NCBI GenBank assembly: GCA_964619545.1
Contig: CAZUED010000001.1
Location: 49,898-113,897 of the forward strand
Origin: an uncultured Muribaculaceae bacterium
GTDB taxonomy: Bacteria > Pseudomonadota > Alphaproteobacteria > Rs-D84
DNA length: 64,000 bases
Direction of reading: 5' to 3'
The notes under the pieces were generated by a model. That model was given only the letters and a program-made list of their open reading frames with translations. It did no database searches and had not been told where the DNA came from. Positions 9,941 through 52,496 of this stretch are shown piece by piece (the first letter of the stretch is position 1; each line of letters starts with the position of its first letter). The translations under genes were made by a program, and so were the position numbers.

Positions 9941-10222
9941 ATGACAAGTCGCGAACATCTGGAGCAAATTTCACGCAGTATGAATCTTACTTCATATCAG
10001 TTATATATTTTGGAAATGAACATAGATAAATATGATTTACATCGGCTTGTAAAGCATGGCGATTTTTTATATGCGCCATATAAAGTTGAATTTTCGCATA
10101 GTTTCAAAGATGCCATAAAAGAAATACTTTTTGGTCGACGTGCAGATTTAATAGGTCCAGATAGACTTTTGGTTTTTAATAAACGTGGAATAAAAATGCG
10201 TCGTGATGGAAGCTATCGCTAG
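9941..10222 (+). CDS. Hypothetical protein (93 aa)
   Basis: ORF with GAGG 5 nt upstream of the ATG. The tracked start at 9884 would overlap the terminator hairpin. Confidence 0.3.
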   Translation: MTSREHLEQISRSMNLTSYQLYILEMNIDKYDLHRLVKHGDFLYAPYKVEFSHSFKDAIKEILFGRRADLIGPDRLLVFNKRGIKMRRDGSYR

Positions 10223-12741
10223 AACTGGCTGTGCGTTCGCACAAATTCACCAAGATAAGCTGGATCAATTACTCTCATGATTTCAGATAGCGAATAATTC
10301 CGCTCGCCCGTTGCCATAATTTTTAATGATATAGGTTTTGGTTCCACCGATACCCCACGCATCAAAATATTTAGATCTGCTGATATTTTTTTGCCTTCTA
10401 ATTCAAGGTTTCCGGTAATTTCGGTATGTCTGGCTACAACCGACAATGGGGCTGTTGTTTTGAGTTTGCCGTTTTCGTATTCGCCCTTTATTTTTAAAGT
10501 TTTAATTTTTGTTTCGCCACCACTGATTGCATGTGCGATTGAGTCTTCGGCAGTAAGTGGAGTAATAGTTGCCGCGCGTGCATAAAAAGCATCAGTTCCG
10601 ACTCCATGCAGTGTTCCGCCATCAAAGCTGAGCTCTAACATACCCTTCATTTTCCGCCAAAAGTCATAGGCTATTTTTCCACCAGTTGACATATGGGCTT
10701 GGCCAGTTACGACTGAATCTGATATATTCAATACTGATGCATTATCCAGCAATTTCCCCATAAATGCGAATCTGTTTAATTTTATAAGAATTTCGTAATT
10801 ATTGCCGCGCGCCTTTAATGACACCAAAAGGCTGCCGCGTGCGTCGTCCGTTATTGAAAAGTCTTGAGTGTCTTTTCGCAGTGAGTAAACAAAATTATCA
10901 TATTTTTCACCATTCCAAATCAGTTGATCCGCGGCCAGTGACAAATTAAGACCACCGAGCTCAAACGGAGCAAGAATCGGAGCGCTGGATAAAAATTGCA
11001 TTTCTTCGTAATTGTCAAAATACTTTTTATTTGCAAACTTATCAAAATCCAAAGTATCACATTTTAATGTTATATTTGTTCCGTTAACATTTCCGTGAAA
11101 AATATGATCTGCCATGCGCAGTTCTAAATCTGTAATATAATTTCCTGAATAATTAGCGGATACTTCATATGGGAAATCATTGATAAATGGCATGTCCAAC
11201 GAAGGATAGCGAGCATTTATAAATTCCACCGTACTGGCTCCAGTCAGATAAAAGAAATTTCCTTGGGTTGTCAATTCCCATTTTTTGTTTTCTGGTGTGA
11301 AAGAAAAATCATTATCTTTCCATTGCATTGTTCCTGTTTGCATACGCATAGATTCAGGTAAAAATTGGAAATCACTTGTATTCAGCCAGTTCAGACTTTT
11401 ATTGATTACAAGGTTATAATTTATTGTCTGTTTTTTATTTTTTATATCTATTTTTCCAGCCATATTTATAAACTGAAAATCTATATTGCCATTATCGCCC
11501 AAAAATGCGAGCGCACCAGCAAAGTCAAAATTTTCCGGCATAGGCTGTTTAGAATTCATTAACGCTGTAAATCCAAATTTATCAGCCGAAAGTTTTCCAT
11601 TAGCTATCAGATTTTTCCCAGTGTATTTATACTCATCACATCTCCAATTTTCCGGCGTTCCATTAAATAAGCAATAAATTTCATCATCGCTGCGTGTCAG
11701 ATTTATCACCAGGTTTTGCGCACCATTTCCTGTGATGTTTCCGTTTATCAATCCATTGATTTTATTGTTTGCAAATTCCAAATTTTCTATTTTGATTTTA
11801 TCATTTTCTGCAACAGCATTAAGTCTAATCATATCATAACTGGTATTTGCAAATTTTAAGTTTCCACGTAAATCTAAATCCAAATTTACATTTTTCAATA
11901 ATGTTTTTTGCGTCAGCAAAAATGATAAATCAAAGTTAATTTTGTCAGATTTTATTTGTATTTTTCGTATACTGCTATCTGCAGGTAATTCAATAGAACC
12001 TGTAAAATCATCTCCACCGACTTTTCCGCGAATTTCTAAAAACTTAAATCCATATCCACCATCCCAATCAACAGACATAGTCAGCTTTACATGGTCTTGA
12101 ATTTCAGGCTCGAAAAAATCAAACCAAGAATTTATATCGTCCGTATCTATAGCAAGCGATGCATTTGCACCACCGCCATTTTGCCATTTTCCTATAATAG
12201 ACAGGCCTTCGCTTTTATTAGTTACAGAAAATTCATCCGTATTACTTTTGATAAAGTATTTGTGTTGTTCGGTTCTGATCCAACCATCAAAATTTCCATT
12301 TTGTAAAGTTGCCTGGACAATGTCATATTTTTTGCCCATAAATTTTACATCAGAATTTGATAGCAGAATTTCTGTTGCAATTTTTGGAGCCTCTAAACTT
12401 TGTAAGTCAAGCCTGGCTCCATCCACATAGATTGTGCCAGAAAGTTTTGCGTCCGATATATTAAATATTTCGGAAAGCCGAATTGTAAACATTACCGAAT
12501 CAATTTTGCCATTTGGCACAATTACATCGTGCGCCACAATATGCGCACGCCCCAACAGGCTGATGTTAATTCTGCCATTGATTTTTGCCGTCGTTCCAGT
12601 TTGAGTTTGCAATGCGCTTTCAAATCCTGGACGCATGCTTTTCAGATTAAACATAGGCGGGATAATAATTGCGGCCAGAATCAGTGCCAAAAACACGGAT
12701 AAAATGCTGAAAAAAACTATGCGACGATGCCGTGCTTTCAT
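10219..12741 (-). CDS. AsmA-family protein (N-terminal membrane anchor, large periplasmic beta-rich domain)
   Basis: N-terminal RRIVFFSILSVFLALILAAIII transmembrane segment followed by ~800 aa; size and architecture typical of AsmA/TamB-like proteins. Confidence 0.5.
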   Translation of the reverse strand: MKARHRRIVFFSILSVFLALILAAIIIPPMFNLKSMRPGFESALQTQTGTTAKINGRINISLLGRAHIVAHDVIVPNGKIDSVMFTIRLSEIFNISDAKLSGTIYVDGARLDLQSLEAPKIATEILLSNSDVKFMGKKYDIVQATLQNGNFDGWIRTEQHKYFIKSNTDEFSVTNKSEGLSIIGKWQNGGGANASLAIDTDDINSWFDFFEPEIQDHVKLTMSVDWDGGYGFKFLEIRGKVGGDDFTGSIELPADSSIRKIQIKSDKINFDLSFLLTQKTLLKNVNLDLDLRGNLKFANTSYDMIRLNAVAENDKIKIENLEFANNKINGLINGNITGNGAQNLVINLTRSDDEIYCLFNGTPENWRCDEYKYTGKNLIANGKLSADKFGFTALMNSKQPMPENFDFAGALAFLGDNGNIDFQFINMAGKIDIKNKKQTINYNLVINKSLNWLNTSDFQFLPESMRMQTGTMQWKDNDFSFTPENKKWELTTQGNFFYLTGASTVEFINARYPSLDMPFINDFPYEVSANYSGNYITDLELRMADHIFHGNVNGTNITLKCDTLDFDKFANKKYFDNYEEMQFLSSAPILAPFELGGLNLSLAADQLIWNGEKYDNFVYSLRKDTQDFSITDDARGSLLVSLKARGNNYEILIKLNRFAFMGKLLDNASVLNISDSVVTGQAHMSTGGKIAYDFWRKMKGMLELSFDGGTLHGVGTDAFYARAATITPLTAEDSIAHAISGGETKIKTLKIKGEYENGKLKTTAPLSVVARHTEITGNLELEGKKISADLNILMRGVSVEPKPISLKIMATGERNYSLSEIMRVIDPAYLGEFVRTHSQF

Positions 12742-31444: not shown

Positions 31445-32881
31445 TTGCACAGCAATATGCGCGGAAATTTTTTGCTGCAAGCTTTGCTGGCAATCGCCTT
31501 GGTGATGTCATTTATGTCTTTTATGGCGCCAAAATTAGCCGCGCGAAAAAGTGATGCCACCATGGCTGCAATTGCACGCCAGACAGAAACTGCTGCCCGC
31601 GCAGCTCGGCAATTTGTCCGTGCCAACAAGTCAAGCATTGTTTATGGTCCACGCACCATTTCAGGTGATGGATTTTCCGATTTGCTAGAACCTTTTGGTC
31701 TGCCATTGGGTTTTATTCCATTAACCACAGCACAACAAAAAATTTCGCTTTTGACATCAAAAAATGATTCTGGTGTTATTGCCTTGATAGTTTTGCAGGG
31801 TGGTAAAATTTCAGATGTAAAGCGTCATGAATTAATGTCTCGAATCGGGCCCGAGGCTGCAATTGCGGATGATGATGGATTGTTACATGGAATTGGGGGA
31901 TGGGAAAAATCCCTTAAAGATTTTGGTATAAAACCAGATACATCAGCCGTTTATATGCTGGTTCCTGCAGATGATGATTTTTCAGAATTGATCAGACGTA
32001 ATGCTAATGATTTATCAAGAAATAAATTTCATATTGACCTTTCTATGGCAGGTATGTCTATAAAAAACATCACATCACTTTCTGCAAGGAATGCAGAACT
32101 GGGCACCGCAAACTTTGGAACTTTATCCATAACTGGTTCCAGCGACGAGAGAAAGTTTAAGAACAAGATAGATTTAGTATCCGCCACGCGCGCAGTATTT
32201 CAGACACGCGATGGTGCAAATGCTTTGAACATTTCCAGGGGTGATTTAAATGCAAAATCATTATCCGCGCAAACTCTTTTCAGATATGGAATTCCAGGCT
32301 CGGTTGATGCTGGGTCAACTTCAATCAATTCATTATCAATGGCTGTCGGTCGATCAGGATTTATAGGAATGTATGATTGGGATGTTCACAGCGATGTAAT
32401 TTTAAATAATGTTTCTATAGATACTGAACATCTTGAAATAAATGGATTTGTGAATGCTTCGCGTGGTCAGGATGTATTTATTGATAAAGATGAATTAACA
32501 TATTCAACAAAAAGTGGGGTCGAGACAAGAAAACTTACTACCGCATCAATAACTTTACGGGACCAGGTTTCCAGCGCATTGCTTTCTGGATCTGATGGCT
32601 CTGTAATTCTTGACATTCGTCCAGCAGGTGTTTCTGTTTTAACAGATGTTTTATCCGACAGCATAAATAACGACGCATTTGAGATACTTAAAAACCCAAC
32701 CGCCGATGATGGTGCATTAATTGGTTGCAGAAATGTAATTTCTGCTTTGCCATCGGCACCTGCATACAATTCCAAATCCGCTGCGCAAAACATAGTATGC
32801 CAATTTGTTTTCTGGCAACGTCTTGAGCGTCGTATAAACATAAAGCAGTGTATGCTAGACGGGGGCAGCAATTGCGGATGA
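31445..32881 (+). CDS. Large prepilin-like protein A (478 aa): short leader MHSNMRG, then a hydrophobic NFLLQALLAIALVMSFMSFMAP segment
   Basis: TTG start with a strong SD AGGAGGG 7 nt upstream. Has a class-III signal-like N-terminus and a beta-rich remainder; paralogous to the next two genes. Confidence 0.5.
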   Translation: MHSNMRGNFLLQALLAIALVMSFMSFMAPKLAARKSDATMAAIARQTETAARAARQFVRANKSSIVYGPRTISGDGFSDLLEPFGLPLGFIPLTTAQQKISLLTSKNDSGVIALIVLQGGKISDVKRHELMSRIGPEAAIADDDGLLHGIGGWEKSLKDFGIKPDTSAVYMLVPADDDFSELIRRNANDLSRNKFHIDLSMAGMSIKNITSLSARNAELGTANFGTLSITGSSDERKFKNKIDLVSATRAVFQTRDGANALNISRGDLNAKSLSAQTLFRYGIPGSVDAGSTSINSLSMAVGRSGFIGMYDWDVHSDVILNNVSIDTEHLEINGFVNASRGQDVFIDKDELTYSTKSGVETRKLTTASITLRDQVSSALLSGSDGSVILDIRPAGVSVLTDVLSDSINNDAFEILKNPTADDGALIGCRNVISALPSAPAYNSKSAAQNIVCQFVFWQRLERRINIKQCMLDGGSNCG

Positions 32882-34176
32882 TGAATAAATTAAAGTTTTT
32901 TTATAATAAATATATTATGGGTGAAAAAAATTCATCCCATGTAATTCATTATTCATTAACTTGTCAGCGGGGTGCTGGATTGTTAGAAACTTTGCTGGCA
33001 ATCGCAGTTGTTGGTGCAGTTCTACCCTTTGCTTATACCAGTGCTATAGATATGAGTCACAGTATTGCAGATACTGCCGAGGCTAATCGGGTTCTGGCAT
33101 GGCATGATCCTGTGATGGCATATGTTCGTAAGAATCAGTCAGATTGGCCGCAAACGGCACAAATAGAATTTGACGAAGAGGAAGTTGTTATTATGGGGAC
33201 TGGAGACAACAGATTATTGTATCCATATGCCGGGTTTATTGAAAAGCGTCAGGGTTCCGGCGGTTCGGTTATAAATGCATATTTAGCATTTCGCCCAGTT
33301 GGTATAAATGAAATCCGCGTTGCAAACATTGCAAAAAATCTGGGTTCTGATGCTGCTGTTGCCAGCAATGGTGGGAATGCATCCAGCTCTGCTGGATGGA
33401 GCATTTATTCCGAGCTATTTACAGATGGTGATTTGATTTTTAGAATTTCTGACATTTTGGGTGATGATGATGCATACAAGTATTTGCACAGAACTTATTT
33501 GGACGATCCAGAATTAAACACAATGCGTCGTGATTTGGATATGGCAAAAAATAGCATTTTTGACATTGGGAAAATAACAGCGCAAACATTGAATGCTACA
33601 AACTCGAAACTTTGGTTTATTGAAACTCCACATATTCAGACGTCCGAAATTTATTTTCCCGAAGGATCGTCAATTGATGCGTCTAAAGCTGTCTTTGGTT
33701 CGGTTAATGTGAACGGAGACGTTAATGGACTGCGAAAAATTACGGCTGGAAAATTAAAAGGCGCTGCCGTACTTGCTGGTTCGCAGTGGTCTTCACGTGG
33801 CGATGTTGTAGTAGATTCAGTAAATGTAAATGGGCCTGTTAATGTTCAGCGAGACATGGTGGTGCGCGCAGAAAGTGCGCGCAGTATAAGTGGTTTCGCC
33901 GGTGTGCGTGCAAATTCCGTTGCAACGCCATATATTTTTGCAGATCAGATGTTTTTTGCCAGTGGTTATGGGATAACAATTTCAAGTGAGTTGTTATATT
34001 CTTCTACTGGTGTACCAATAAAATTAGGAAATTGGAGCTTTCCATCAACAAGCAGTCCAAAGTTTTCCACGCTGACATTGTATAAATCCAATGGAAAGGA
34101 ATTAGGCCAAGTATTGGGTGTTCCAAATACCAAAGATGTTGCGTCGATAATGAGAAGTGGATGGAAAAATCTGTGA
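32878..34176 (+). CDS. Large prepilin-like protein B (433 aa): 32-aa leader MMNKLKFFYNKYIMGEK...CQRG, then AGLLETLLAIAVVGAVLPF
   Basis: ATGA overlap with gene A. Has RG followed by x4-E and a ~20-aa hydrophobic stretch; the C-terminal GSVNVNGDVNG...VNVNGPVNV repeats suggest a beta-helix. Confidence 0.5.
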   Translation: MMNKLKFFYNKYIMGEKNSSHVIHYSLTCQRGAGLLETLLAIAVVGAVLPFAYTSAIDMSHSIADTAEANRVLAWHDPVMAYVRKNQSDWPQTAQIEFDEEEVVIMGTGDNRLLYPYAGFIEKRQGSGGSVINAYLAFRPVGINEIRVANIAKNLGSDAAVASNGGNASSSAGWSIYSELFTDGDLIFRISDILGDDDAYKYLHRTYLDDPELNTMRRDLDMAKNSIFDIGKITAQTLNATNSKLWFIETPHIQTSEIYFPEGSSIDASKAVFGSVNVNGDVNGLRKITAGKLKGAAVLAGSQWSSRGDVVVDSVNVNGPVNVQRDMVVRAESARSISGFAGVRANSVATPYIFADQMFFASGYGITISSELLYSSTGVPIKLGNWSFPSTSSPKFSTLTLYKSNGKELGQVLGVPNTKDVASIMRSGWKNL

Positions 34177-35537
34177 ATCATAAATTAAGGAATTTTTATA
34201 ATAAATATATTATTGGTGAGAAAATTTCACCAGATGTAACACACCATTCACGTGGCGGGATGATGTTGGAAATACTTTTGTCTTTGGCTATTGCTGCGGC
34301 CGCATTGCCTTTTGTTCTGCGGCAATTAGATAATCGTACGCACCGCGCTGAAAATGTAAGCATAGCGCGCGACATTGCTATGACTCGTGATGCTTTAGAA
34401 CGTTATATGGATGCGCGGAAACGCGAATTATTGGCGCCAACCGGATCATTCGTTACGCGTGTTAAAATGCGCGATCTGATTGAATACGGAAACATTCCAA
34501 AAAATTATGACAAGTTCCAAGCCCGTATAATAAAATCCAGGGATGCAAACGGCCATGCTGTTTTATCAGGTATGGTTATATTTGACTCTGCGGATATATC
34601 ACCAGTGCGAACACGGGAAATTGCAGAACTTGGTGGACAGGGTGCTGGATTTGTAGAACGAAACGAAGCATACAGCGCATTCGGAACATGGCGTAGTAAG
34701 ACAAGTATTTTTGATGCGCAATTTGGCAAGGATTCGGTAGTAGAAAGCACAGACACAATTTTGTCTGGTGGTGACTTTCTTTGGAGATTGCCTTCGAATG
34801 AGCCACTAGACGGATCAATGGCCAGCGATTTTTCTATGGGTGGTAATAATATAAATGACGCAAAGCAAATAGATGCGTATAGCGCAGATTTTAGTGAGAT
34901 TTTGCATGCGGATTTAATTTCCGCCAGAAAAGTTCAGATTACACCTCGTGCAAATTTTGAATCGGCATTAGTTGTATCGGGCGAAGCCCTGGTAATGGGC
35001 GCAATGACATCTGATTCAAGAAATGCGACAATAGGCTCGGAAGTTTTTTTAACTGGCCAGGCGCGTATATCCAGACTGGACACAGGCGAGCTTTGGGTCG
35101 GCGATCTGAATCTGAATGGGCTTTCTATTGGTGGAAGCGAGAAACCTGGAATTTTGAAAGTTGGTCAGACCATAGACATTACTCGCGGCCGTATAACGGC
35201 GCGTACGGCAACTATTGGATATAGCGGTTCAGTTGCACCAAAAATTTCAGTGACCGAACGTATAGAAGATTCAGGCAATCAAGCATATTATTGGGACTTG
35301 AAATCTGGGGATGCCAAGTTTTTTGATGTTTCTGCAGGGCAGCTTAATCAAATGATGAAAAATGCAATTCGCGCCGAATCAAAAAGTCCAAAAACAACTA
35401 CAGAAACAATAATTAATCAAGTTGCCGCAAATAATAATGCGACCATTTCAGATTACGCACGTGCATTGGGCGAAATACAAAGCAAGGTTATGATGAAATA
35501 TAACCGCTTGAAATTAGAGCAAGCCGGTGTAAAATAA
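34161..35537 (+). CDS. Large prepilin-like protein C (458 aa): leader MEKSVNHKLRNFYNKYIIGEK...HSRG, then GMMLEILLSLAIAAAALPF
   Basis: Overlaps the gene B stop. The leader motif KL+xFYNKYI(I/M)GEK is shared with gene B. An alternative GTG start at 34173 gives MNHKLRNFYNKY. Confidence 0.5.
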   Translation: MEKSVNHKLRNFYNKYIIGEKISPDVTHHSRGGMMLEILLSLAIAAAALPFVLRQLDNRTHRAENVSIARDIAMTRDALERYMDARKRELLAPTGSFVTRVKMRDLIEYGNIPKNYDKFQARIIKSRDANGHAVLSGMVIFDSADISPVRTREIAELGGQGAGFVERNEAYSAFGTWRSKTSIFDAQFGKDSVVESTDTILSGGDFLWRLPSNEPLDGSMASDFSMGGNNINDAKQIDAYSADFSEILHADLISARKVQITPRANFESALVVSGEALVMGAMTSDSRNATIGSEVFLTGQARISRLDTGELWVGDLNLNGLSIGGSEKPGILKVGQTIDITRGRITARTATIGYSGSVAPKISVTERIEDSGNQAYYWDLKSGDAKFFDVSAGQLNQMMKNAIRAESKSPKTTTETIINQVAANNNATISDYARALGEIQSKVMMKYNRLKLEQAGVK

Positions 35538-35542
35538 AATAT

Positions 35543-36028
35543 ATGAAAGTTGCTTGTCCTTTTTGTAAAGTAGAGTATTGTGTGCGAAATCAAAATTGCC
35601 GGTTGTTTCAATGCGCAGTTTGTGGTTGCACATGGCGTGCACCATCGCGTGAGAAAAATTCGCGAATATGGATTTTTCTTTTGTCGTGTTTTGTTTTATT
35701 GTTAGCAGTTTTTTCTTTAGTTGCTTTATTGCTTTGGATACCGCACACTAACGAGGCATTGTCAGTCCGGATGGATTCGGCCGTGCGCGCTGATGAATTT
35801 TTGATAGTGTCAGGCGTTGTTTCTAACAAATCGGAAAAATTATATGGCGTTCCAGATTTGATTGTATCAATGAAAGATAATCGGGGCGTGGAAATTTCAT
35901 CTCAAAAATTCTCGCCACCTACACCATTATTAGATTCAGGTGAAGAAGCGGACTTTTCAGTCCAGGTTCGAAATGTGCCGGTAGGGGTAGATAAAATTTC
36001 GGTGAAATTTAATAATACAGGAAATTAA
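35543..36028 (+). CDS. MJ0042-type zinc-ribbon / DUF3426-like membrane protein
   Basis: CPFCKVEYCV...CAVCGCTW zinc ribbon, then a TM helix, then a ~90-aa C-terminal domain. Confidence 0.45.
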   Translation: MKVACPFCKVEYCVRNQNCRLFQCAVCGCTWRAPSREKNSRIWIFLLSCFVLLLAVFSLVALLLWIPHTNEALSVRMDSAVRADEFLIVSGVVSNKSEKLYGVPDLIVSMKDNRGVEISSQKFSPPTPLLDSGEEADFSVQVRNVPVGVDKISVKFNNTGN

Positions 36029-36030
36029 CA

Positions 36031-36501
36031 ATGATTAAAATACTCAACAAATTCTTAGTTGCATTTATCCTTTTTAATTTTGCCGCGCATGCTGATAATG
36101 TTGTGTTACAAAGACCAAGTATATTTTCCACCAGCACAGATTGGGAAAGCATTACAGGTTTGCGATACGGCCAATTTGATTTGTCTTTTATCAGGGATAA
36201 ATCAATCGGGAATAATGGGATAGAGTTATATTTTCTAGATGGTTTTCCGTGTATAGGTCAGGCGCAAACTGCGCGTGCATGGATTTCGCCCAGCAAAATT
36301 TCAGGCGCAGATGAATATGTAAAAATGTATATCAGCTGTGTGCAGCGTCCGACAGAATTACGTTTTGCATGGCGCGAAGCTGCACGTCAAGATTATCAAA
36401 GTCGGACCACAGGAATTATGACTTGTAATATAACAGGACAAGGCCGTTTAATTCCTATTACATTGAACGATTGTGTTAAGGGGAAAAACTGGGATGAGTG
36501 A
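36031..36501 (+). CDS. Secreted hypothetical protein (signal peptide, 4 Cys)
   Basis: N-terminal LVAFILFNFAAHA signal; no recognised domain. Confidence 0.35.
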   Translation: MIKILNKFLVAFILFNFAAHADNVVLQRPSIFSTSTDWESITGLRYGQFDLSFIRDKSIGNNGIELYFLDGFPCIGQAQTARAWISPSKISGADEYVKMYISCVQRPTELRFAWREAARQDYQSRTTGIMTCNITGQGRLIPITLNDCVKGKNWDE

Positions 36502-44842: not shown

Positions 44843-46204
44843 TTATTCCTCTAAATACTCGCGCAGTTTATCACCAGAAATTTTTGGTGTTCTTGTTGCT
44901 TCGCCGGGCTCTACTATTGAAACAACTCGTGGGCTCATAAACACAACCAACTCTGCAAATGGATTTATCAATGTTTCGGGTTCGGTCACAAAGCTGTGTG
45001 TTGGAATTCCAATTATCACATAGTTATCACCCAGGCTGGATGGAACATTAAAGTTTGCCAATTCCCCATCGCTGGTGCGAAGTGTTATTTTAGCATCAAG
45101 TTTTACCATGTCTGCATACTGACCATACTTTCCAGTCGCGCCAACAATCAAGTCCGTTTCCAATCTGTCCTCGCGGGAACACTGACCAATGTCAAATCTG
45201 CTTTGCCAGCCATTTGGTATTACAAATGTTCCTTGGGAAATTAAAACTACATTAGCTTGTTGTGATAAGAATGATTGTAATGTTTTTGTGTTTATCTCTG
45301 GGGACACCACCAGTAATCTGCCAACTACGCCAGGTATCGACATTTTTACATTGTCATCACCGAATGCTGGCAACATATTCATCCATACTATCGGATTATC
45401 AGTGCGTGGATATACGCGATATACATCCATGTCCCATGCAACTAGGAATTTTTTGTTGCCGACATCTGCAACAATTGCGCGAACTTCGCGTTCGGTTTGA
45501 TAATTTCCCTCGAATACCAGGGTTTTATCCTGCCAGTTAGTAAGCAGATTTCGCAATTCAGCACCACGCATTGCATCGATCAACGCCATTATCATATGCT
45601 GGTCTTTTGGCATTTTCATCAGCCATTTTCCGCGTGATGAAATCCGAATTTCCTTGGCATCGTCATCATAAGAGTAATAAACTTTTCCCAATTTGCAGAT
45701 AAGCTCTACAGCGTCTTCCAATGTTCCGGATTTAATTTCTCCGCTAATCAGATCTGGCATATTGTCGGATACAACTACTTTTATCTTGGTTCCTTTTAAA
45801 AGGTTTTCTAAAACATCTGGGACATTCTTTTTCTTGAATGCAAAATCTTCGACGTCAAAATCAGGCAGATTATCGCCCTTGTTCAATCGCACGATTTCAA
45901 CAGGTTGTGCCGGGATAACAGACATTATATTTTGGTTATCCCAATCAACTTTACATCTTTTTGGAAGGTCTATGGCAAAACGCCGTGCGGTATCAGTTGT
46001 CAATCCAGCTTTGCGTGGAAATATAGGAACTGAGTATTCATCTACAATTGTGTTTTCAACAACCTCTATCGTATCGTATTGGACCTGATTTTGCTGACGC
46101 ATTTGTGTGCATCCAGCAAGTACAAGGCACAGAATACATGTCACAGGTAATATTTTTATATATTTTATATTCATTGTTGGTTCCTTGTTTCTATGCTTTG
46201 CCAT
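44843..46204 (-). CDS. Secretin-like outer-membrane lipoprotein (Secretin_N-like plus C-terminal secretin motif), co-operonic with lolCD
   Basis: Lipobox LVLAGC; N-domain-like NVPDVLENLLKGTKIKVVVSDNMPDLISGEIKSGTLEDAVELICKLGKVYY; C-terminal ETLINPFAELVVFMSPRVV resembles the secretin ELVIFVTPRIV signature. The likely true start is MNIKYIKIL at 46174. Confidence 0.5.
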   Translation of the reverse strand: MAKHRNKEPTMNIKYIKILPVTCILCLVLAGCTQMRQQNQVQYDTIEVVENTIVDEYSVPIFPRKAGLTTDTARRFAIDLPKRCKVDWDNQNIMSVIPAQPVEIVRLNKGDNLPDFDVEDFAFKKKNVPDVLENLLKGTKIKVVVSDNMPDLISGEIKSGTLEDAVELICKLGKVYYSYDDDAKEIRISSRGKWLMKMPKDQHMIMALIDAMRGAELRNLLTNWQDKTLVFEGNYQTEREVRAIVADVGNKKFLVAWDMDVYRVYPRTDNPIVWMNMLPAFGDDNVKMSIPGVVGRLLVVSPEINTKTLQSFLSQQANVVLISQGTFVIPNGWQSRFDIGQCSREDRLETDLIVGATGKYGQYADMVKLDAKITLRTSDGELANFNVPSSLGDNYVIIGIPTHSFVTEPETLINPFAELVVFMSPRVVSIVEPGEATRTPKISGDKLREYLEE

Positions 46205-46212
46205 TATGCATT

Positions 46213-46520
46213 TCAGATGTTCATAACCTTTTCGAATTCTTCCAAAGTCATTTCATAGATTGGTTTGTTACTGGGGGTTGTTAAATTTTTCATACCTTGA
46301 AATTCTGTGTTATATTTTTTTACCAAAGCTTTTAATTTAGCGTCACCAGTATTTAATTTTTCCCCGTATGCGTTCAGCATTTCCAATATATCTGCTGCAA
46401 AAAATCTTCCTACGTAATTCTCGGGTGCTATACCGCCTTTTTGGGTGCGAACAGCCGCCGACAAAGTTTTTAATGCCTCATAAAAACCTGCTATTCTGAT
46501 GTATCTTTCTTCGGCGGTCA
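46213..46520 (-). CDS. Hypothetical acidic protein (~102 aa), first gene of the secretin-like/lolCD operon
   Basis: ORF starting at MTAEERYIRIAG; the upstream extension overlaps a neighbouring gene. Confidence 0.3.
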
Positions 46521-46669
46521 TCTGCTTCTCCTTCCTGGACTGCATTATAAACTTAAAACATTTGCTTTCGCAAGTCCAAAAGGATGACGGATTGATAATA
46601 AAAGGCAATGGACAAAGCGCAGATAAATTTAGATTGCCAAGAATTGTATTTTTAGTTTATAATTTGATT

Positions 46670-47056
46670 GTGAAAAAAATATGTGCCTTATGCCTTGTTC
46701 TGTATGCATTGTCAGGTTGCTCGTCTGCCAATCGTGGTTCCATTGACGATGCGACGGTTTTAAATTGGGAAAATGATGCCGTAACCACCGAGCAATTTGT
46801 CCGTGATCATAAAAGTTGCCTGGGGGTGACGCGTCCGGCCCATATGCCACGTTCTAGACTTGCAAAACTTATCAGCCCGAACCAGTCCGGATTGATGCCC
46901 GATTGGGATGGTTTATGGGTTACATTTCAATCAAATGAAAGTCCTGATACGGGCCAGCGCTCGCTGATGTCTGTGCCGCCAAATACCAGCGCTCGGTCGG
47001 TCGGGTCATATCGTAGATGCATGATGAGACGTGGTTATTTATTAAGAGCTTATTAG
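46670..47056 (+). CDS. Small lipoprotein (GTG start; VKKICALCLVLYALSGCSS lipobox)
   Basis: Classic lipoprotein signal peptide. The tracked ATG at 46499 would overlap the divergent gene. Confidence 0.4.
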   Translation: MKKICALCLVLYALSGCSSANRGSIDDATVLNWENDAVTTEQFVRDHKSCLGVTRPAHMPRSRLAKLISPNQSGLMPDWDGLWVTFQSNESPDTGQRSLMSVPPNTSARSVGSYRRCMMRRGYLLRAY

Positions 47057-47134: not shown

Positions 47135-47821
47135 ATGAAAAACAAATTCCTGTTTTGGCTGTCGTTAGCCGTAGCGGTGTTGCTGGCGGTTTATCTTGGT
47201 GTGCGCATCAGCATGGTTCTGATGGGTGTGGGTGGGTCGCTGTCATCGGTAAAGAAAATTTCTGTACATTCCAGTAATGGTGAGGTTGCCGGTCTTATTT
47301 CGCGCCTGGGTATTGAACCTGGGGTTCGGCATGTTGATTTGGATCAGGCTTTGACGCGTATCGCGGCCGATCCAGATGTGGCAAGTGCCGGGGTGCGTCG
47401 AATGCCTAATGGCGAAATAAAAGTTCGTGCAAAAATGAGGGTTGTTATAGCCAGTTGGACAGATGGGGAACATTATTATCCTTTGGATGATACGGGTGCG
47501 CCGATAAATCGGCCATTGCCGGAAAGACCGGCAAATACTTTGATTTTTTCTGGTCAAGTCCCAAGCGACATTTCATCAGCTATAGCAGCATTAAAGCAGG
47601 CACCAGGGCTGTTTTATAGAATAGACAGAGTGGAGTTTGTAGAAGGCAGGCGTTGGGACATTTTTTTGCTGAATGGAATTCGTATTATGCTGCCCGAGGA
47701 AAATTTTGCCAGCGCTGCCGAAAAAATAGAAAAGCTGAATAAACAAAATATGATATTGGACAGACAAATAACACTTTTGGATTTGCGTGATCCAGCGCGC
47801 GTACTTGTAAAATTAAAATGA
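47135..47821 (+). CDS. ftsQ: Cell-division protein FtsQ (short POTRA-domain form)
   Basis: N-terminal TM helix, then VRHVDLDQALTRIAADPDVASAGVRRMPNGEIKVRAKMRVVIASW, a POTRA/FtsQ pattern; immediately upstream of ftsA. Confidence 0.7.
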   Translation: MKNKFLFWLSLAVAVLLAVYLGVRISMVLMGVGGSLSSVKKISVHSSNGEVAGLISRLGIEPGVRHVDLDQALTRIAADPDVASAGVRRMPNGEIKVRAKMRVVIASWTDGEHYYPLDDTGAPINRPLPERPANTLIFSGQVPSDISSAIAALKQAPGLFYRIDRVEFVEGRRWDIFLLNGIRIMLPEENFASAAEKIEKLNKQNMILDRQITLLDLRDPARVLVKLK

Positions 47822-49587
47822 ATCTGACAGATGGTGCATTTTTATGTTTAGACATTGGATCGTCCGGCGTTCATGCAGTTGCCGTACGTGTCAGTTTTGG
47901 TCGTATCAAAGCATCTGCAAATGCGTTTGTTGAATCAAAGGACGCAGTTTGGGCATTAAAATCATCGGTGGATAGCCTGGAAGAGCAAATTGGCGCGCGC
48001 TTTGACTCTGCATTTGTTACCGGAAATTTTGGTGCAATAAAGTCAGAAATTTTTTCGCGAAAAACATCATGGGCGTCTGAGCATAAAATTACCCCGCAAG
48101 ATGTTTTAGAGCAGGTGTCAGATGCAACCGAAGATGGATTTTCAATCTTACATATAATTCCGCTACGCTATGATCTAATCGGATTTCACAACATTGCAAA
48201 TGTGGTTGGACAAACTGATTGTGCCTTGCTTTCTGTGTTTCATTCAATTTCTTATTCTGATCAAGGATTGCTGCGGGCAAAATCTGCTTTGCATGGCGCT
48301 CATTTAGAGTCAGATGGATTTTTTGATCCATCATTTATTTTGGCGGCCAGTATACGTGAGTCTGCTGAATCATCCGTTTTTATAGATTTTGGTGCCCAGT
48401 TCACCAGTGTTTCACTTTGGACGCCCCGCGGACCAATGCTGATGGCAAAAGTGCCTTTGGGTGGTGCGCGTATTACAAAAGAAATTGCTAAAGCTTTTGG
48501 CGTGCCAGTTGCCGAGGCCGAACGACTGAAAATTTCCGGTATGACATTGATGCGTACGGATATGGATAGATTCACACCCAGCGATGCAAAGCATGACATT
48601 ACCAGATTTGAATTAAACGAGGTGACTGGTTCGGTATTTTCAGAAATCTTGGGTCAAGTGCATGATGTGTTGGACGCGGGAATACAAAAATACAATCCGG
48701 TAAAACTTTATATCAGCGGCGGCGGCGCACAAATTTCCGGACTAGACACAGTATTGGAAAAAGAATTTTCCATGCCAGTAAAAAACCTGGGCGCCTTTGG
48801 AATTGCCAGCGCATTGGCTGAATTTGTCTGGAACAATGAATCTTCGCGCGTTTCTGTTTATCTGGCGCGCAGAAAAAAATGGGATAAGGTTTTCGGATTC
48901 TTGTTCGCACCTTTGCGCTGGCGGTTAAAAACTGGGCGCAAGCGCTTGGTGCCAATTATGCCCAGCACTCTTGTGTGGGATATGCGTAATGGTACTACCT
49001 ATGCAAAATTTGCATCGGCGAATATTAGTATGATTCACGTTGATGTAATGGACGGATTTTATGTTGAAAAAATTGCTAGCGGAATTGACGAGCTTCGATT
49101 TATTCGTGCACACACAAAATCACATTTGCATGTTCATCTTATGACTGAAAATCCGGTCAGTTGGGCCGCGGAAGTAATTGAAGCCGGCGCAGATACAATA
49201 ATTGTTTCATCTGGAACTAATGGGGTGGTGCGGGCATTGCGTGAAATCCGGACCTCAGGTCGGCGTGCAGGAATAGCATTACATCCAAATACCCCATTGG
49301 AAGTAATTGCACCAGTGTTACGCGAAATTGACGAAGTTATGGTTATGTCTGTTGTTCCTGGGGCATCAGGACAATGTTTTATTGAATCTTCACTTTCTAG
49401 AATTGCGTCGCTTTATAATACCAGACGTCGTCATGGTTTGCATTTCAAGATCTCAGTTGATGGCGGAATAAATCCTGAGACAGCAAAAAAATGCTGGGCC
49501 GCAGGTGCAGATTTGTTGGTCGCGGGAAGCTTTCTGGCATCTGCCCCCGACTTTGCTGGCGCAGTTCAAGAACTGATCAGGAAATAA
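47818..49587 (+). CDS. ftsA: FtsA (actin-like cell-division protein) fused in frame to ribulose-phosphate 3-epimerase (Rpe); 589 aa
   Basis: N-terminal FLCLDIGSSGVHAVAV, ISGGGAQISGL and an amphipathic WDKVFGFLFAPLRW helix (FtsA membrane-targeting helix). This runs without a stop into IMPSTLVWD...IHVDVMDGFYV...VDGGINPETA (Rpe TIM barrel). Confidence 0.7.
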   Translation: MNLTDGAFLCLDIGSSGVHAVAVRVSFGRIKASANAFVESKDAVWALKSSVDSLEEQIGARFDSAFVTGNFGAIKSEIFSRKTSWASEHKITPQDVLEQVSDATEDGFSILHIIPLRYDLIGFHNIANVVGQTDCALLSVFHSISYSDQGLLRAKSALHGAHLESDGFFDPSFILAASIRESAESSVFIDFGAQFTSVSLWTPRGPMLMAKVPLGGARITKEIAKAFGVPVAEAERLKISGMTLMRTDMDRFTPSDAKHDITRFELNEVTGSVFSEILGQVHDVLDAGIQKYNPVKLYISGGGAQISGLDTVLEKEFSMPVKNLGAFGIASALAEFVWNNESSRVSVYLARRKKWDKVFGFLFAPLRWRLKTGRKRLVPIMPSTLVWDMRNGTTYAKFASANISMIHVDVMDGFYVEKIASGIDELRFIRAHTKSHLHVHLMTENPVSWAAEVIEAGADTIIVSSGTNGVVRALREIRTSGRRAGIALHPNTPLEVIAPVLREIDEVMVMSVVPGASGQCFIESSLSRIASLYNTRRRHGLHFKISVDGGINPETAKKCWAAGADLLVAGSFLASAPDFAGAVQELIRK

Positions 49588-49710
49588 AGGGTTGAAAAAT
49601 TAGTCGTTAAGTGGATTTTTAATTTTCTACTTTATATCTACTATTTTCTACTTTTTTATTTGTTATGTTTTTTCTTTTATGATAAAATGAAAGCATAAAA
49701 TGGTGGGAAT

Positions 49711-52449
49711 ATGAGAATAAAAAAAGCAATAATCGTTGGTTTGATGCTGCCTTTAGTATCTGAAATTTGCGCGATACCGGCGGGTGCTGTCAGCTATGTG
49801 AATACGCCGACCGCGCGCCCCAGCACTACGGCGCGTATGCCGACATTGTTGACAGGTTCAGTTGCCAGTACGGCTTATTCTACTGCGACTAATGCTGGAT
49901 TGGCTGCGACGTGTGCAAATCCATTACCGGAAAGGCTGACCTCTAACAGATGCATTGACAGATACGATTCGTGCCTGCGCCAAGAAAATGTCTGCGGCGA
50001 ACATTTTGAGCTGTGCTATAACTTAAAACAATTTAACAAGTCCCGCATAATGTGTCAGGATTATTTGGCACAATGTCCCGCCGAAGCAATCAAAGCCATC
50101 TTTGGAAATTCTGTTACAACATCGGATGATTTTTCCGCGGCGAACCGGGCGATGTGTGATGGCGAATCCGTTTTGATAAAAAGATCTTTTTCTCCATCAC
50201 TTGGTGACATTGCGGTCGCCGGTGATAGCAGAATAGACATCGCTATAAAAGAGGGTAGAAACTGGGCTGCTGCAAATAGCGTTAAAACTTGTAACAAAGC
50301 TGCTGATGTTTGTATTCAGAATGCTTGCCAAGGTTCTCCACAGAAATGTATTTCTTTGAATGGATTTTCAGATATAGACACGGCCGAGATGGTTAATATA
50401 GCAACAGCTGGCGAAACCACTTTGCGCTTGAATGCAAAAATGTTGGAAACTTGGATTTTCAATATGGGCTGGGATGACAGCAATGTAAAAAATTATCTGA
50501 AAGAGCAATGCCGTGAAACTATTGGTGCAAACGAATGGTGCTTTATGGTGACAAATGGCAAGCCAGCCAAGGAAGCAGACCTGGTTGATAATTTTAACAT
50601 CCAGGAAGTTTTCACAGACATTATGTATAATGGTGTTGGTGCCCGTTGGAAAATGTCACAATCCAAGATAAAAGAATGGGCGGCAGCTGCAACCAAAAAT
50701 TCTGTAGCGCAATGCCAGGCTGCATTGACCGATTGTGCAATTAATGCATGCGGTGAAGGATCGCGCGCACGGTGCTATGGATTGGCAAAAGATGGCAATT
50801 CGGTCAGTATAAAGAATAAAGCAGGTTCTGACATCGAAGGCCAATGCAAGAATTTGATAGAAAACAATCAATACTGCAAGGATGTTTTCCGTAACAAAGA
50901 AAATGGTTTGGATGGGGATGTCTGGACCCAGGTTTGGACAAATGATGTTATGGGGACCATAGTTGGTCTGGATTCCGATTTGCAAAAAATGTTTAACGAA
51001 GAGGCTGTGGCAGAAATGCGCCGTAGCTGTCAGGCTCAGGCTGAAAAATGTGTTATGGACGAATGCGGAAGCGATTTCTCGCGCTGCTTTATAACCAGCA
51101 GTGATGCTAAAAAGGCAGGCCAGGTTGCTTTTGCATCTGGCAAGGTAACCAGCAGTTTGTTTGCCGGCGGATTTGATGAAGCCTTGGCTCGTGACCTGTG
51201 CATACTGAAAGTAAAACAAGTCACAGATTGTAATGACTATTTTGATGTTCAATATGCAAAACAATCAAGTGGCAAAAGTGCTGATGCGTGGGCCACATCC
51301 AGCACGGCTCGTAATGCTTGGCTGGGCGCTGCGAACAGCACGACAGAAGACAATGTATGCCGAGTGACCGAAACCTATCTGGATAAATATGATGTTTCGG
51401 GCAATGCGATTGACCCAACGGTTAAGTTGGCGTCCAAGGTAAAGGTTTGCGCAGCCCAAGAACGCGGTATATTTGATGGATTGTTAGGCGATATAAACAA
51501 GCGCGCGAATTCGGTTCTAGAACGCGAAGCAAATGACATTAAAAACGCTTGTGAAAACAGCAATGTCAAGGGCTCGACCGCAAAAGATTATATCTGGGCG
51601 GCATTTGACGGGTTGGGCGGATCTGACGAATATAGTGGATTCAGTGAAGTTCGCGAAACAAGTAATCCGTTTGATGGATTCTGTGCAGTTCGTGTAACAA
51701 TTCGTTCTAATAATTCCAAAGTTGTCAGCGCACTTGGTGGTAATAAAACTATGTATTATGCAAAAGGCACAACTATGCCTTGCCTGGGCTTGACCGCGGA
51801 CGAGCTGGAAAAAGTCGAGCGCGCAGTTGCATCTGATGTAAGGTTCTGTGGTTCTGATGAAACAAATGCAACTCATGGCTGTGTAGAGAGAATGACAGGA
51901 TTGCAAAAAACCCTGAGTATAGGTGGCGCGACCTTGGGGGGCCTAGTTGTTGGTGGCTTGGGCGGGGTCATGGCTGGTAATGCGATACAGAATAAAATAA
52001 CCAGCTCGGGCAACAATCTCAGCGAGGCTGAACGGACTATATTAAACAATTGCAATTCTTGTTTGTCATCCCAAGGTGTTGGATTCAGCAGCAAAAACGC
52101 ATGCAGTTCTGCCAGTATGGGTGACAACGATGATGGCAAAAGCAATGTTGTTGCAAAAAATCTTTGCCAAGCAAAGGCGAACGAGCTGAATGCCAAGGCG
52201 AAAAAACAAACAAACAATCTGATGAACTTTGCCAGCACTGGCGGAATTACTGGGGCAAGTGTTGGTGCTGGATTGTTAGGTTTGACCGGCGGACTTTTGG
52301 CTGGTAATGCGATTGATCAAAATGAAAAGGATAAATTAGCAGAAGCCCGTCAGGCAGCCATAGATGATTTTAACGCTAAGACAGATATAAATTGTTATAT
52401 CGGCGGTAAAAAAGTTGCCGCGTATGGTTCAGATATGGTTATAAAATAA
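49711..52449 (+). CDS. Giant secreted cysteine-rich repeat protein (912 aa, 39 Cys) with two C-terminal glycine-zipper segments
   Basis: Signal peptide; three tandem super-repeats each carrying C-x6-C-x4-C-x6/7-C followed by C-x9/10-C; C-terminal LSIGGATLGGLVVGGLGGVMAGNAI and GGITGASVGAGLLGLTGGLLAGNAI. Confidence 0.55.
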   Translation: MRIKKAIIVGLMLPLVSEICAIPAGAVSYVNTPTARPSTTARMPTLLTGSVASTAYSTATNAGLAATCANPLPERLTSNRCIDRYDSCLRQENVCGEHFELCYNLKQFNKSRIMCQDYLAQCPAEAIKAIFGNSVTTSDDFSAANRAMCDGESVLIKRSFSPSLGDIAVAGDSRIDIAIKEGRNWAAANSVKTCNKAADVCIQNACQGSPQKCISLNGFSDIDTAEMVNIATAGETTLRLNAKMLETWIFNMGWDDSNVKNYLKEQCRETIGANEWCFMVTNGKPAKEADLVDNFNIQEVFTDIMYNGVGARWKMSQSKIKEWAAAATKNSVAQCQAALTDCAINACGEGSRARCYGLAKDGNSVSIKNKAGSDIEGQCKNLIENNQYCKDVFRNKENGLDGDVWTQVWTNDVMGTIVGLDSDLQKMFNEEAVAEMRRSCQAQAEKCVMDECGSDFSRCFITSSDAKKAGQVAFASGKVTSSLFAGGFDEALARDLCILKVKQVTDCNDYFDVQYAKQSSGKSADAWATSSTARNAWLGAANSTTEDNVCRVTETYLDKYDVSGNAIDPTVKLASKVKVCAAQERGIFDGLLGDINKRANSVLEREANDIKNACENSNVKGSTAKDYIWAAFDGLGGSDEYSGFSEVRETSNPFDGFCAVRVTIRSNNSKVVSALGGNKTMYYAKGTTMPCLGLTADELEKVERAVASDVRFCGSDETNATHGCVERMTGLQKTLSIGGATLGGLVVGGLGGVMAGNAIQNKITSSGNNLSEAERTILNNCNSCLSSQGVGFSSKNACSSASMGDNDDGKSNVVAKNLCQAKANELNAKAKKQTNNLMNFASTGGITGASVGAGLLGLTGGLLAGNAIDQNEKDKLAEARQAAIDDFNAKTDINCYIGGKKVAAYGSDMVIK

Positions 52450-52467
52450 GAAACCAGTTGTAAAAAA

Positions 52468-52496
52468 ATCCGCGCCTTTGACGCGGATTTTTTATT
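52468..52496. terminator. Bidirectional terminator (atccgcg-cctttga-cgcggat followed by TTTTTATT)
   Basis: Inverted repeat with a T-run, between convergent genes. Confidence 0.6.

Follow-up and report, generated by a model that had tools for sequence, protein, structure and literature searches.

Results

What kind of protein does a reduced-genome alphaproteobacterium encode behind ftsQ and an FtsA-like gene, and does that position say anything about what the protein does? The question is raised by a 64,000-nucleotide stretch of contig CAZUED010000001.1 (assembly GCA_964619545.1, positions 49,898 to 113,897 of the forward strand), which we call the window and from whose first letter all coordinates are counted. 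An open reading frame (ORF) at 49711-52449 (+), read from its first in-frame start to its stop, translates to 912 amino acids (aa), 39 of which (4.3%) are cysteines. An earlier description made from the letters alone, which we refer to as the sequence-only reading, had reported this ORF with its length and cysteine count, a signal peptide and two C-terminal glycine-rich segments that each end in AGNAI, and all of this is borne out. We tentatively read the product as an exported, disulfide-stapled helical envelope protein that is anchored, probably in the outer membrane, by a hairpin of glycine zippers and that has a scaffold or contact role, a reading that we consider possible but somewhat short of probable.

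A single-copy family of gut Alphaproteobacteria

A word-indexed search returned 14 relatives of the window protein, 24-94% identical to it, all annotated as hypothetical proteins and all from alphaproteobacterial or “Rickettsiales” metagenome-assembled genomes (MAGs). Starting from the most distant of these 14, a further search yielded 889 clusters, and an exhaustive search of 1.84 billion representatives yielded 109 clusters at 50% identity, nearly all of 900-1200 aa. About 190 full-length homologues share the same architecture. When one genome per species was scanned we found 129 matching loci, 80 of which were retrieved, each from a different assembly. These 80 genomes, all of less than about 1 Mb and from gut Alphaproteobacteria of the Enterousia/Rs-D84 type, carry one homologue each; Candidatus Enterousia is the name given to many of them, and among them is a long-read MAG that forms a circle of 958 kb. 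Because the architecture recurs in independent assemblies, including this circular one, the ORF is not an assembly artefact, a possibility that the sequence-only reading had entertained. Judged by these genomes, a single copy of the gene is a hallmark of gut Alphaproteobacteria of this reduced-genome type, in which it accounts for about 0.3% of the genome. The segment-wise cysteine counts and the loop lengths given below cover 194 family members, and the profile alignment holds 88 sequences.

Enterousia belongs to the order Rs-D84 of the Genome Taxonomy Database (GTDB). Genomes of this order are mostly <1 Mb, lack respiration and the tricarboxylic acid cycle, and encode few transporters; most biosynthetic pathways are missing, and both an obligate partner-dependent lifestyle and the uptake of metabolites from other cells have been proposed (PMC12306168). 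Such bacteria are common in human, ruminant, bird and termite guts, and MreB, RodA and PBP2 have been reported for the window's lineage (PMC12306168). The window itself encodes MltA, which is peptidoglycan-associated, as well as the lipopolysaccharide (LPS) and outer-membrane functions KdsA, KdsB, LptG, AsmA and LolCDE. The presence of the latter indicates that the organism is a true diderm. The sequence-only reading had spoken of an intracellular bacterium. That label is unproven: the proposals made for this lineage of uncultured, reduced-genome gut Alphaproteobacteria go no further than a partner-dependent lifestyle (PMC12306168).

Does the family resemble anything known? Searches of Pfam, NCBIfam and PHROGs gave nothing significant for the whole protein, for four of its sub-segments or for two distant homologues; no Pfam family matched the full-length protein at E <= 0.01, and the sub-threshold hits were unrelated. 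A profile search of the Protein Data Bank (PDB) sequences with the 88-sequence alignment returned noise only (best E 0.015, to a designed binder). With no Pfam, NCBIfam, PHROGs, PDB-sequence or Foldseek relative, the cysteine module stands outside every characterised family, as had been suspected from the letters, and the profile, PDB-sequence and structure searches matched the repeats to no well-known domain family. Our literature search found no description of the family, and its database entries are hypothetical proteins only. By the measure of these sequence and model searches the family is uncharacterised, as nothing of known function or structure is detectably related to it, and the protein may represent a new fold as well as a new use of glycine-zipper helices to anchor a large protein.

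Export and domain layout

A signal peptide with an AxA cleavage site is kept throughout the family, with the consensus P-A-A-[FY]-A followed by x-T-A-R-P-S, and the protein is on this evidence exported by way of a Sec-type signal peptide. The T-A-R-P-S...R-M-P-T motif that begins the mature chain is the best-conserved segment of the family (55% identity, with R36 kept in 96% of members, R42 in 98% and P44 in 94%) and is disordered in the AlphaFold model. We considered whether the motif is a shared sorting signal and did not retain the idea, as it occurs in no second ORF of the window or of the relatives' locus stretches L001-L089.

The cysteines that follow are regularly spaced. The sequence-only reading had described an initial C-x6-C-x6-C-x6-C unit, which corresponds to C81, C88, C95 and C102; this unit in fact extends to C115 and C122 (C81-x6-C88-x6-C95-x6-C102-x12-C115-x6-C122) and so constitutes a fourth six-cysteine module. 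Three later units, which we call R1, R2 and R3, each have the spacing C-x6-C-x4-C-x6/7-C as described, followed by a cysteine pair. The pairs are all C-x9-C, not C-x9/10-C, and the modules are not three repeats of about 140 aa, being spaced by 141 and 105 aa. Profile-profile comparison shows that their similarity is real but weak (E 3e-4 for R1/R3, 6e-5 for R2/R3, 7e-3 for R1/R2, and 3e-3 for the N-terminal module against R3). Because this similarity is weak but non-random, and no DNA-level tandem repeat is found within the coding region, the module duplication must be ancient.

The AlphaFold2 model built from the 88-sequence alignment is mostly helical, with a mean pLDDT of 71 that rises to 80-93 over aa 70-460; R1 is helical in it, at pLDDT 78-92. 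A sub-model of aa 546-912 (mean pLDDT 74) reaches a pLDDT of about 90 over aa 575-725, which comprise the long helix and the alpha/beta domain, over the loop hairpin at 770-835 and over the C-terminal domain at 870-912. Both zippers are of low confidence in this sub-model.

The cysteines follow a parity rule

In alignments of 88 to 194 homologues, which are only 24-28% identical to the window protein, about 30 cysteine columns do not vary, so the cysteine pattern is, at the sequence level, far beyond chance. The modal cysteine count of the family is 38. The window protein has 39 because of C20, a non-conserved residue inside the signal peptide that is present in only ~5% of members.

Gains and losses of cysteines come in pairs across the family. 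The gains of C713 and C724 coincide (r = 0.95). Most members carry an additional N-terminal six-cysteine module, which gives them five modules versus four in the window's clade; where it is missing, C68, which is one of its cysteines, is retained and C149 gained (r about -0.9). Because C149 occurs only where that module is missing, it is the likely partner of C68. The counts per segment are also constrained. The loop between the zippers holds 0, 2, 4, 6 or 8 cysteines in 190 of the 194 members, and the C-terminal tail exactly one in 188; the N-terminal domain holds an odd number, so that its sum with the tail is even in 187. Both rules (loop even; N-terminal domain plus tail even) hold together in 183 members. 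The exported chain, in other words, has an even and conserved number of cysteines that are gained and lost in pairs, the pattern that we took operationally to identify a disulfide protein. An even-number cysteine bias is a mark of disulfide-bonded exported proteins. Such parity is what obligatory pairing would be expected to produce, and it predicts a disulfide between C895 and the N-terminal domain, together with a self-contained, stapled loop. We conclude from the counts that the mature chain probably forms about 19 disulfides. The segmental parity rule thereby yields a concrete, testable topology and disulfide map.

Alternatively, the cysteines could serve as thiolates. In that case helical bundles lined with heptad-spaced cysteines would bind and store Cu(I) or similarly soft metals, as in the four-helix bundles of the copper-storage proteins (Csp). 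The C-x6-C spacing does place cysteines on one helix face, and the habitat is anaerobic and reducing, with an oxidase system that is presumed. However, cysteine counts that stay strictly even, with gains and losses that compensate each other in pairs, are expected of disulfides and not of metal clusters, and histidine and methionine are scarce (2 His). The protein also differs from Csp in being a multi-domain protein with membrane segments and in having no sequence similarity to it. We therefore regard metal storage as very unlikely.

The glycine zippers and the membrane

Each of the two C-terminal glycine-rich segments carries repeated GxxxG/GxxxA helix motifs. Their glycines (G744, G748, G751, G752 and G756 in zipper 1; G852, G857, G860 and G861 in zipper 2) are conserved in 53-93% of members, and G748, G751 and G752 in 80-93%. 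By a summed biological hydrophobicity, a crude measure with approximate scale values and unweighted positions, zipper 1 reaches +3.4 kcal/mol and zipper 2 +3.0 kcal/mol over their best 19-residue windows, with family medians of +4.5 and +3.4 kcal/mol, respectively. Genuine transmembrane (TM) helices encoded in the window (those of FtsQ, LptG, LolCE, SecF and a Zn-ribbon membrane protein) score -4.8 to +1.7 kcal/mol. Because the zippers score above all of these, they appear unlike ordinary stop-transfer helices, and by analogy they look more like the helices of outer-membrane lipoproteins such as SlyB and YfgH, or those of membrane-inserting toxins. The glycine-zipper helices of SlyB and YfgH are reported to span the outer membrane (bioRxiv 10.64898/2025.12.22.696046).

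Is the protein then a member of the SlyB family? Like SlyB, YfgH, PCP and the Rickettsia 17-kDa antigen (PF05433, PF13488, PF13441), it is exported in a diderm and has glycine/alanine-rich helices of the GxxxG type with low hydrophobicity, and a membrane-embedded helical hairpin with oligomerisation is plausible in both. In contrast, the SlyB-type proteins are small lipoproteins whose zippers lie in one unit of about 45 aa, whereas our protein is unlipidated, has a loop of 32-334 aa (median 124) between its zippers and adds a disulfide-rich domain of about 700 aa. The match to PF13488 is not significant (aa 724-912, E 1.9, 8.9 bits against a cut-off of 25); PF05433 reaches E 9.4 for one homologue (P0064) and has no hit in the window protein. 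There is no conserved lipobox, and the family consensus has no cysteine at position +1 of the cleavage site. A lipoprotein reading of the sequence SEIC was likewise rejected, as SEIC is not a lipobox and its cysteine is not conserved. The link to the SlyB/17-kDa-antigen family that had been drawn from the letters is thus not upheld: the profiles are insignificant, a lipobox is missing, and the widely separated zippers do not form a tight two-TM unit.

No part of the protein varies more than the loop between the zippers, with 9% identity across the family and 29% within the clade. This bears on a second way of placing the hairpin. The zippers could act as stop-transfer and re-insertion helices in the inner membrane, leaving the cysteine-rich domain and the C-terminal tail in the periplasm and the loop in the cytoplasm, and the protein would be a tethered scaffold or sensor. 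Two hydrophobic segments after a cleaved signal peptide are what such a topology calls for, and the parity fits, with the N-terminal domain plus tail even and the loop separately even; marginally hydrophobic helix pairs can insert cooperatively. The zippers nevertheless lie at +3 to +4.5 kcal/mol, well above every real TM helix that was scored in the same genome, and the loop side shows no positive-inside bias. A hypervariable cytoplasmic loop with 2-8 cysteines in even numbers and a tenfold range of lengths would also be unusual. We consider the inner-membrane hairpin unlikely.

The zippers might instead enter the membrane of another cell, the protein being displayed or released as an effector that opens a pore or conduit for killing or for acquiring metabolites. 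Precedents exist: in the alphaproteobacterium Caulobacter, surface-associated, contact-dependent bacteriocins have a glycine zipper as their active element (PMC5380434), and so do membrane-targeting effectors of type VI and type VII secretion systems (T6SS and T7SS; PMC10240207, PMC12955049). Biosynthetic pathways and standard transporters are missing from the lineage, for which an uptake of metabolites from other cells has been suggested (PMC12306168), and the weak hydrophobicity of the zippers is compatible with passage through Sec without retention. Our protein shares with the Caulobacter toxins CdzC and CdzD, and with the T6SS/T7SS zipper toxins, an extended membrane-insertable glycine zipper in a surface-associated, alphaproteobacterial setting. 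The toxins, however, are small or are C-terminal toxin domains, are exported by T6SS, T7SS or a type I secretion system (T1SS), come with cognate immunity genes and are polymorphic. The family described here is Sec-dependent, 900-1200 aa long, single-copy and conserved order-wide, and neither an immunity gene nor T1SS or other dedicated secretion genes are conserved beside it. The window locus is not Cdz-like either, as its neighbours are housekeeping or variable genes and its product is a 912-aa protein with a Sec signal peptide. A Foldseek comparison with pore-formers found no fold similarity (ClyA, E ~3, TM-score <0.1). An effector role therefore strikes us as improbable.

A possible role in the envelope

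How might an outer-membrane hairpin work? In the reading that we favour, the whole chain would cross into the periplasm, where oxidation would give it ~19 disulfides. The C-terminal domain would fold back and become disulfide-linked to the N-terminal domain, which would put both in one compartment. The two weakly hydrophobic zipper helices would pair as a hairpin embedded in a membrane, most likely the outer one by analogy with SlyB and YfgH; this hairpin would expose the hypervariable loop on the opposite face and promote oligomerisation, while the disordered N-terminal motif, on its Thr/Ser linker, would dock onto another envelope component. From the disulfides, the fold-back, the zipper hairpin and the docking motif taken together, the protein would act as a rigid envelope scaffold or contact protein and be neither an enzyme nor a division protein. 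The sequence-only reading had proposed a role in envelope architecture or host interaction; envelope or interaction remains the most reasonable reading, while the host-cell setting is unsupported.

Several observations weigh against this proposal. The localisation is wholly inferred from sequence, on a hydrophobicity sum as crude as described above, and neither a lipid anchor nor a beta-signal indicates the outer membrane. The charges that flank the zippers do not discriminate between the topologies. No functional partner is conserved beside the gene across the family. Finally, no obvious Dsb protein is encoded in the 64-kb window or in the ~20-kb windows from relatives, and the oxidising machinery (DsbA/DsbB or VKOR) is a presumed one in an anaerobic, respiration-less lineage. 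How 38 cysteines become oxidised in an anaerobe with no respiratory chain is a puzzle that the family raises.

Analogous ideas are found in other bacteria. The chlamydial proteins OmcB and OmcA are also large, exported, cysteine-rich envelope proteins of a reduced-genome, host-dependent bacterium, and a disulfide-stabilised envelope architecture is an idea common to both cases. There is no sequence or domain similarity to them (no Pfam family at E <= 0.01), their own Pfam models being Chlam_OMP6 and the DUF11 repeats. OmcB is beta-rich, whereas our protein is predicted to be alpha-helical, and the window's lineage still encodes peptidoglycan-associated functions. The Sel1-like Hcp proteins of Helicobacter are likewise secreted helical repeats stapled by regularly spaced disulfides. 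Their repeats are ~36 aa long with one disulfide each, in contrast to modules of about 105-140 aa with six cysteines, and no Sel1 or tetratricopeptide (TPR)-type Pfam match is found in our protein. It also has no profile hit to the apicomplexan 6-Cys (s48/45) domain, and its modules are predicted to be alpha-helical and not a beta-sandwich.

A conserved, single-copy gene with its own promoter that encodes 900-1200 aa and ~19 putative disulfides is a leading candidate for a central structure of the envelope or of cell contact, and it bears on how Rs-D84/Enterousia-type bacteria obtain metabolites or attach to partners (PMC12306168). If the zippers do span the outer membrane unlipidated, they would represent a new class of alpha-helical outer-membrane anchor. 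At its most ambitious, the idea would make this the principal protein of a partner-contact organelle: a rigid, disulfide-stapled helical stalk whose unlipidated zippers span the outer membrane or form a metabolite conduit in the partner's membrane, and whose hypervariable loop sets partner specificity. We offer this version as a long shot.

Genomic neighbourhood and the ftsZ question

We next asked if the position of the gene is informative. In the window's clade the gene order ftsQ, ftsA-rpe, the gene studied here, a DnaJ-domain gene and xerD is conserved. A different arrangement is found in the Enterousia clade (~50 loci), where rluD and a five-gene pseudopilin-like cluster precede the gene, and other clades have yet other neighbours, namely unrelated or phage-like genes. 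Because neighbours differ between clades, the position after ftsQ and the FtsA-like gene appears to be a lineage-specific accident of gene order. The sequence-only reading had noted that the gene is placed where ftsZ would be expected; given this variation, and the gene's own promoter and terminator, the observation carries no functional weight.

The suggestion that the protein substitutes for FtsZ or works with it can be judged on the same evidence. Adjacency to ftsQ and the FtsA-like gene is conserved within the window's clade, as such a role would lead one to expect. It is absent, however, from the Enterousia clade (>50 loci) and from other clades, and a separate promoter and terminator serve the gene. 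Its product is an exported, cysteine-rich protein, and we found no Tubulin or FtsZ_C domain in it (Pfam, NCBIfam). The tubulin signature GGGTG[ST]G is absent from the window and from loci L001-L089 (1.63 Mb, covering few genomic regions). In Rickettsia, as in other reduced Alphaproteobacteria, ftsZ is presumably unlinked from ftsQ-ftsA. A division role is in our judgement hardly credible.

The gene had also been said to follow ftsQ-ftsA. Both ftsQ and an FtsA-like gene do lie upstream, but the latter encodes a divergent FtsA-like domain fused to a ribulose-phosphate 3-epimerase (589 aa, 47818-49587, +). The N-terminal half is divergent FtsA/actin-like (PF14450, E 2.6e-13; TIGR01174, 75 bits, under the cut-off of 176), and the C-terminal half is a complete epimerase (PF00834, E 6.5e-46). 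The epimerase thus sits at the C-terminal end, which in FtsA normally carries a membrane-targeting helix. The fusion is kept in relatives, at 590 and 587 aa in L001-L004.

Transcription unit and upstream DNA

A spacer of 123 bp lies upstream of the gene. Its conserved part, in an alignment of ten relatives, is the promoter block TTTGTTAT...TGATAAAAT, and the ribosome-binding region and start codon, GTGGGAAT-ATG, are kept in relatives as well. Downstream, a hairpin between the gene and the convergent DnaJ-domain gene has a folding energy of -15.1 kcal/mol (z = -4.4). With a predicted promoter and terminator of its own, the gene is a stand-alone, monocistronic unit and lies outside any ftsQ-ftsA operon.

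The sequence-only reading had pointed to a direct repeat upstream of the gene. The repeat is present, as copies of TTTTCTACTT at 49623-49632 and 49644-49653 (chance alone would give 0.14 matches in the window), but the gap between them is 11 bp, not 16. In the alignment of ten relatives it is absent from L006, whose protein is 94% identical, and from the others. An operator function was rejected for this reason, and the A/T-rich tract that contains both copies is, from its lack of conservation, probably incidental or strain-specific. The coordinates of all features are collected in Table 1.

Table 1. Features of the gene, its product and its flanking DNA, in window coordinates.
Feature	Position	Strand	Details
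A/T-rich tract, period ~10 bp, 3.5 copies of ATTTTCTACT	49622..49657	+	includes both TTTTCTACTT copies; just 5' of the -35 hexamer
Promoter-like site TTGTTA, 17 nt, TAAAAT with upstream TG (extended -10)	49660..49688	+	
Ribosome-binding region GGTGGGAA	49702..49709	+	ends just before the ATG at 49711
Signal peptide	49711..49788	+	aa 1-26; predicted signal peptidase I cut after A-G-A; holds C20
Mature N-terminal linear motif T-A-R-P-S...R-M-P-T-L	49807..49851	+	aa 33-47
Thr/Ser/Ala-rich low-complexity linker	49852..49911	+	aa 48-67; AlphaFold pLDDT ~31
N-terminal region	49912..50160	+	aa 68-150; C68, six-cysteine module C81/C88/C95/C102/C115/C122, C149
Six-cysteine helical module R1	50266..50685	+	aa 186-325; C194, C201, C206, C213, C267, C277
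Six-cysteine helical module R2	50686..51006	+	aa 326-432; C335, C342, C347, C355, C379, C389
Six-cysteine helical module R3	51007..51345	+	aa 433-545; C440, C447, C452, C459, C497, C507
Long helix and alpha/beta domain	51346..51900	+	aa 546-730; C550, C580, C614, C658, C691, C713, C724
Glycine-zipper segment 1, LSIGGATLGGLVVGGLGGVMAGNAI	51913..51990	+	aa 735-760
Inter-zipper helical hairpin loop	51991..52236	+	aa 761-842; C781, C784, C798, C819
Glycine-zipper segment 2, TGGITGASVGAGLLGLTGGLLAGNAI	52237..52314	+	aa 843-868
C-terminal helix and small beta-sheet domain	52315..52446	+	aa 869-912; single near-invariant C895
Bidirectional intrinsic terminator hairpin, A-run, ATCCGCG...CGCGGAT, T-run	52463..52493	.	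between the gene and the convergent DnaJ-domain gene

Other observations in the window and in related loci

The same five-gene cluster that precedes the gene in the Enterousia clade is found in the window 12 kb upstream of it (31445-36501, +), with no Pfam hit. Three of its products are proteins of ~450 aa with type-IV-pilin-like N-termini, for example RG followed by GMMLEILLSLAIAAA (family consensus G-x-M-L-V-E-L-L-M-S-V-A-L-A); the remainder are a protein with a Zn-ribbon and a TM segment and a small secreted protein. Type IV pili have been reported only for the UBA9783 lineage and not for Rs-D84 (PMC12306168). At 44843-46204 (-) the window encodes a lipoprotein of 453 aa with the lipobox LAGC, which matched no family, adjoins lolCE-lolD and is highly conserved (74-94%). 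It ends in ...ELVVFMSPRVVS, reminiscent of the C-terminal motif of secretins, and has a sub-threshold match (E 0.043) to the N-domain of the EscC/YscC secretins. It may be a divergent secretin that partners the pseudopilin-like genes. Just upstream of ftsQ, an unannotated 185-aa ORF (46499-47056, +) has seven cysteines and no family hit. Because a lipobox-like LSGC falls at about residue 73 of this ORF as called, its true start is probably further downstream.

A phage origin of the family was considered and rejected: among 2.9 M IMG/VR viral contigs there is one weak locus, and there is no PHROG hit. In one relative (L086, 1-19012) the distant homologue P0222, at 10001-12706, lies between genes for a T7-like terminase, a portal/head-tail connector, a capsid protein and a lysozyme, and also adjoins dnaB. 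Because that IMG/VR match is single and weak, L086 looks like a prophage neighbourhood and not like a case of a phage gene.

Within the window's clade, the protein diverges somewhat faster than most of its neighbours; in L003, for instance, it is 50% identical to that of the window, compared with 61-88% for the neighbours. In L007 (CAZHPG010000003.1) it is 70% identical against 83-95% for the flanking genes, which, at the level of sequence identity, suggests locus-specific accelerated divergence or an allele replacement. Six records (L006, L007, L010, L060, L063 and P0015) are titled Muribaculaceae, Bacteroides fragilis or Lachnospiraceae despite their alphaproteobacterial gene content and are probably mislabelled or mis-binned.

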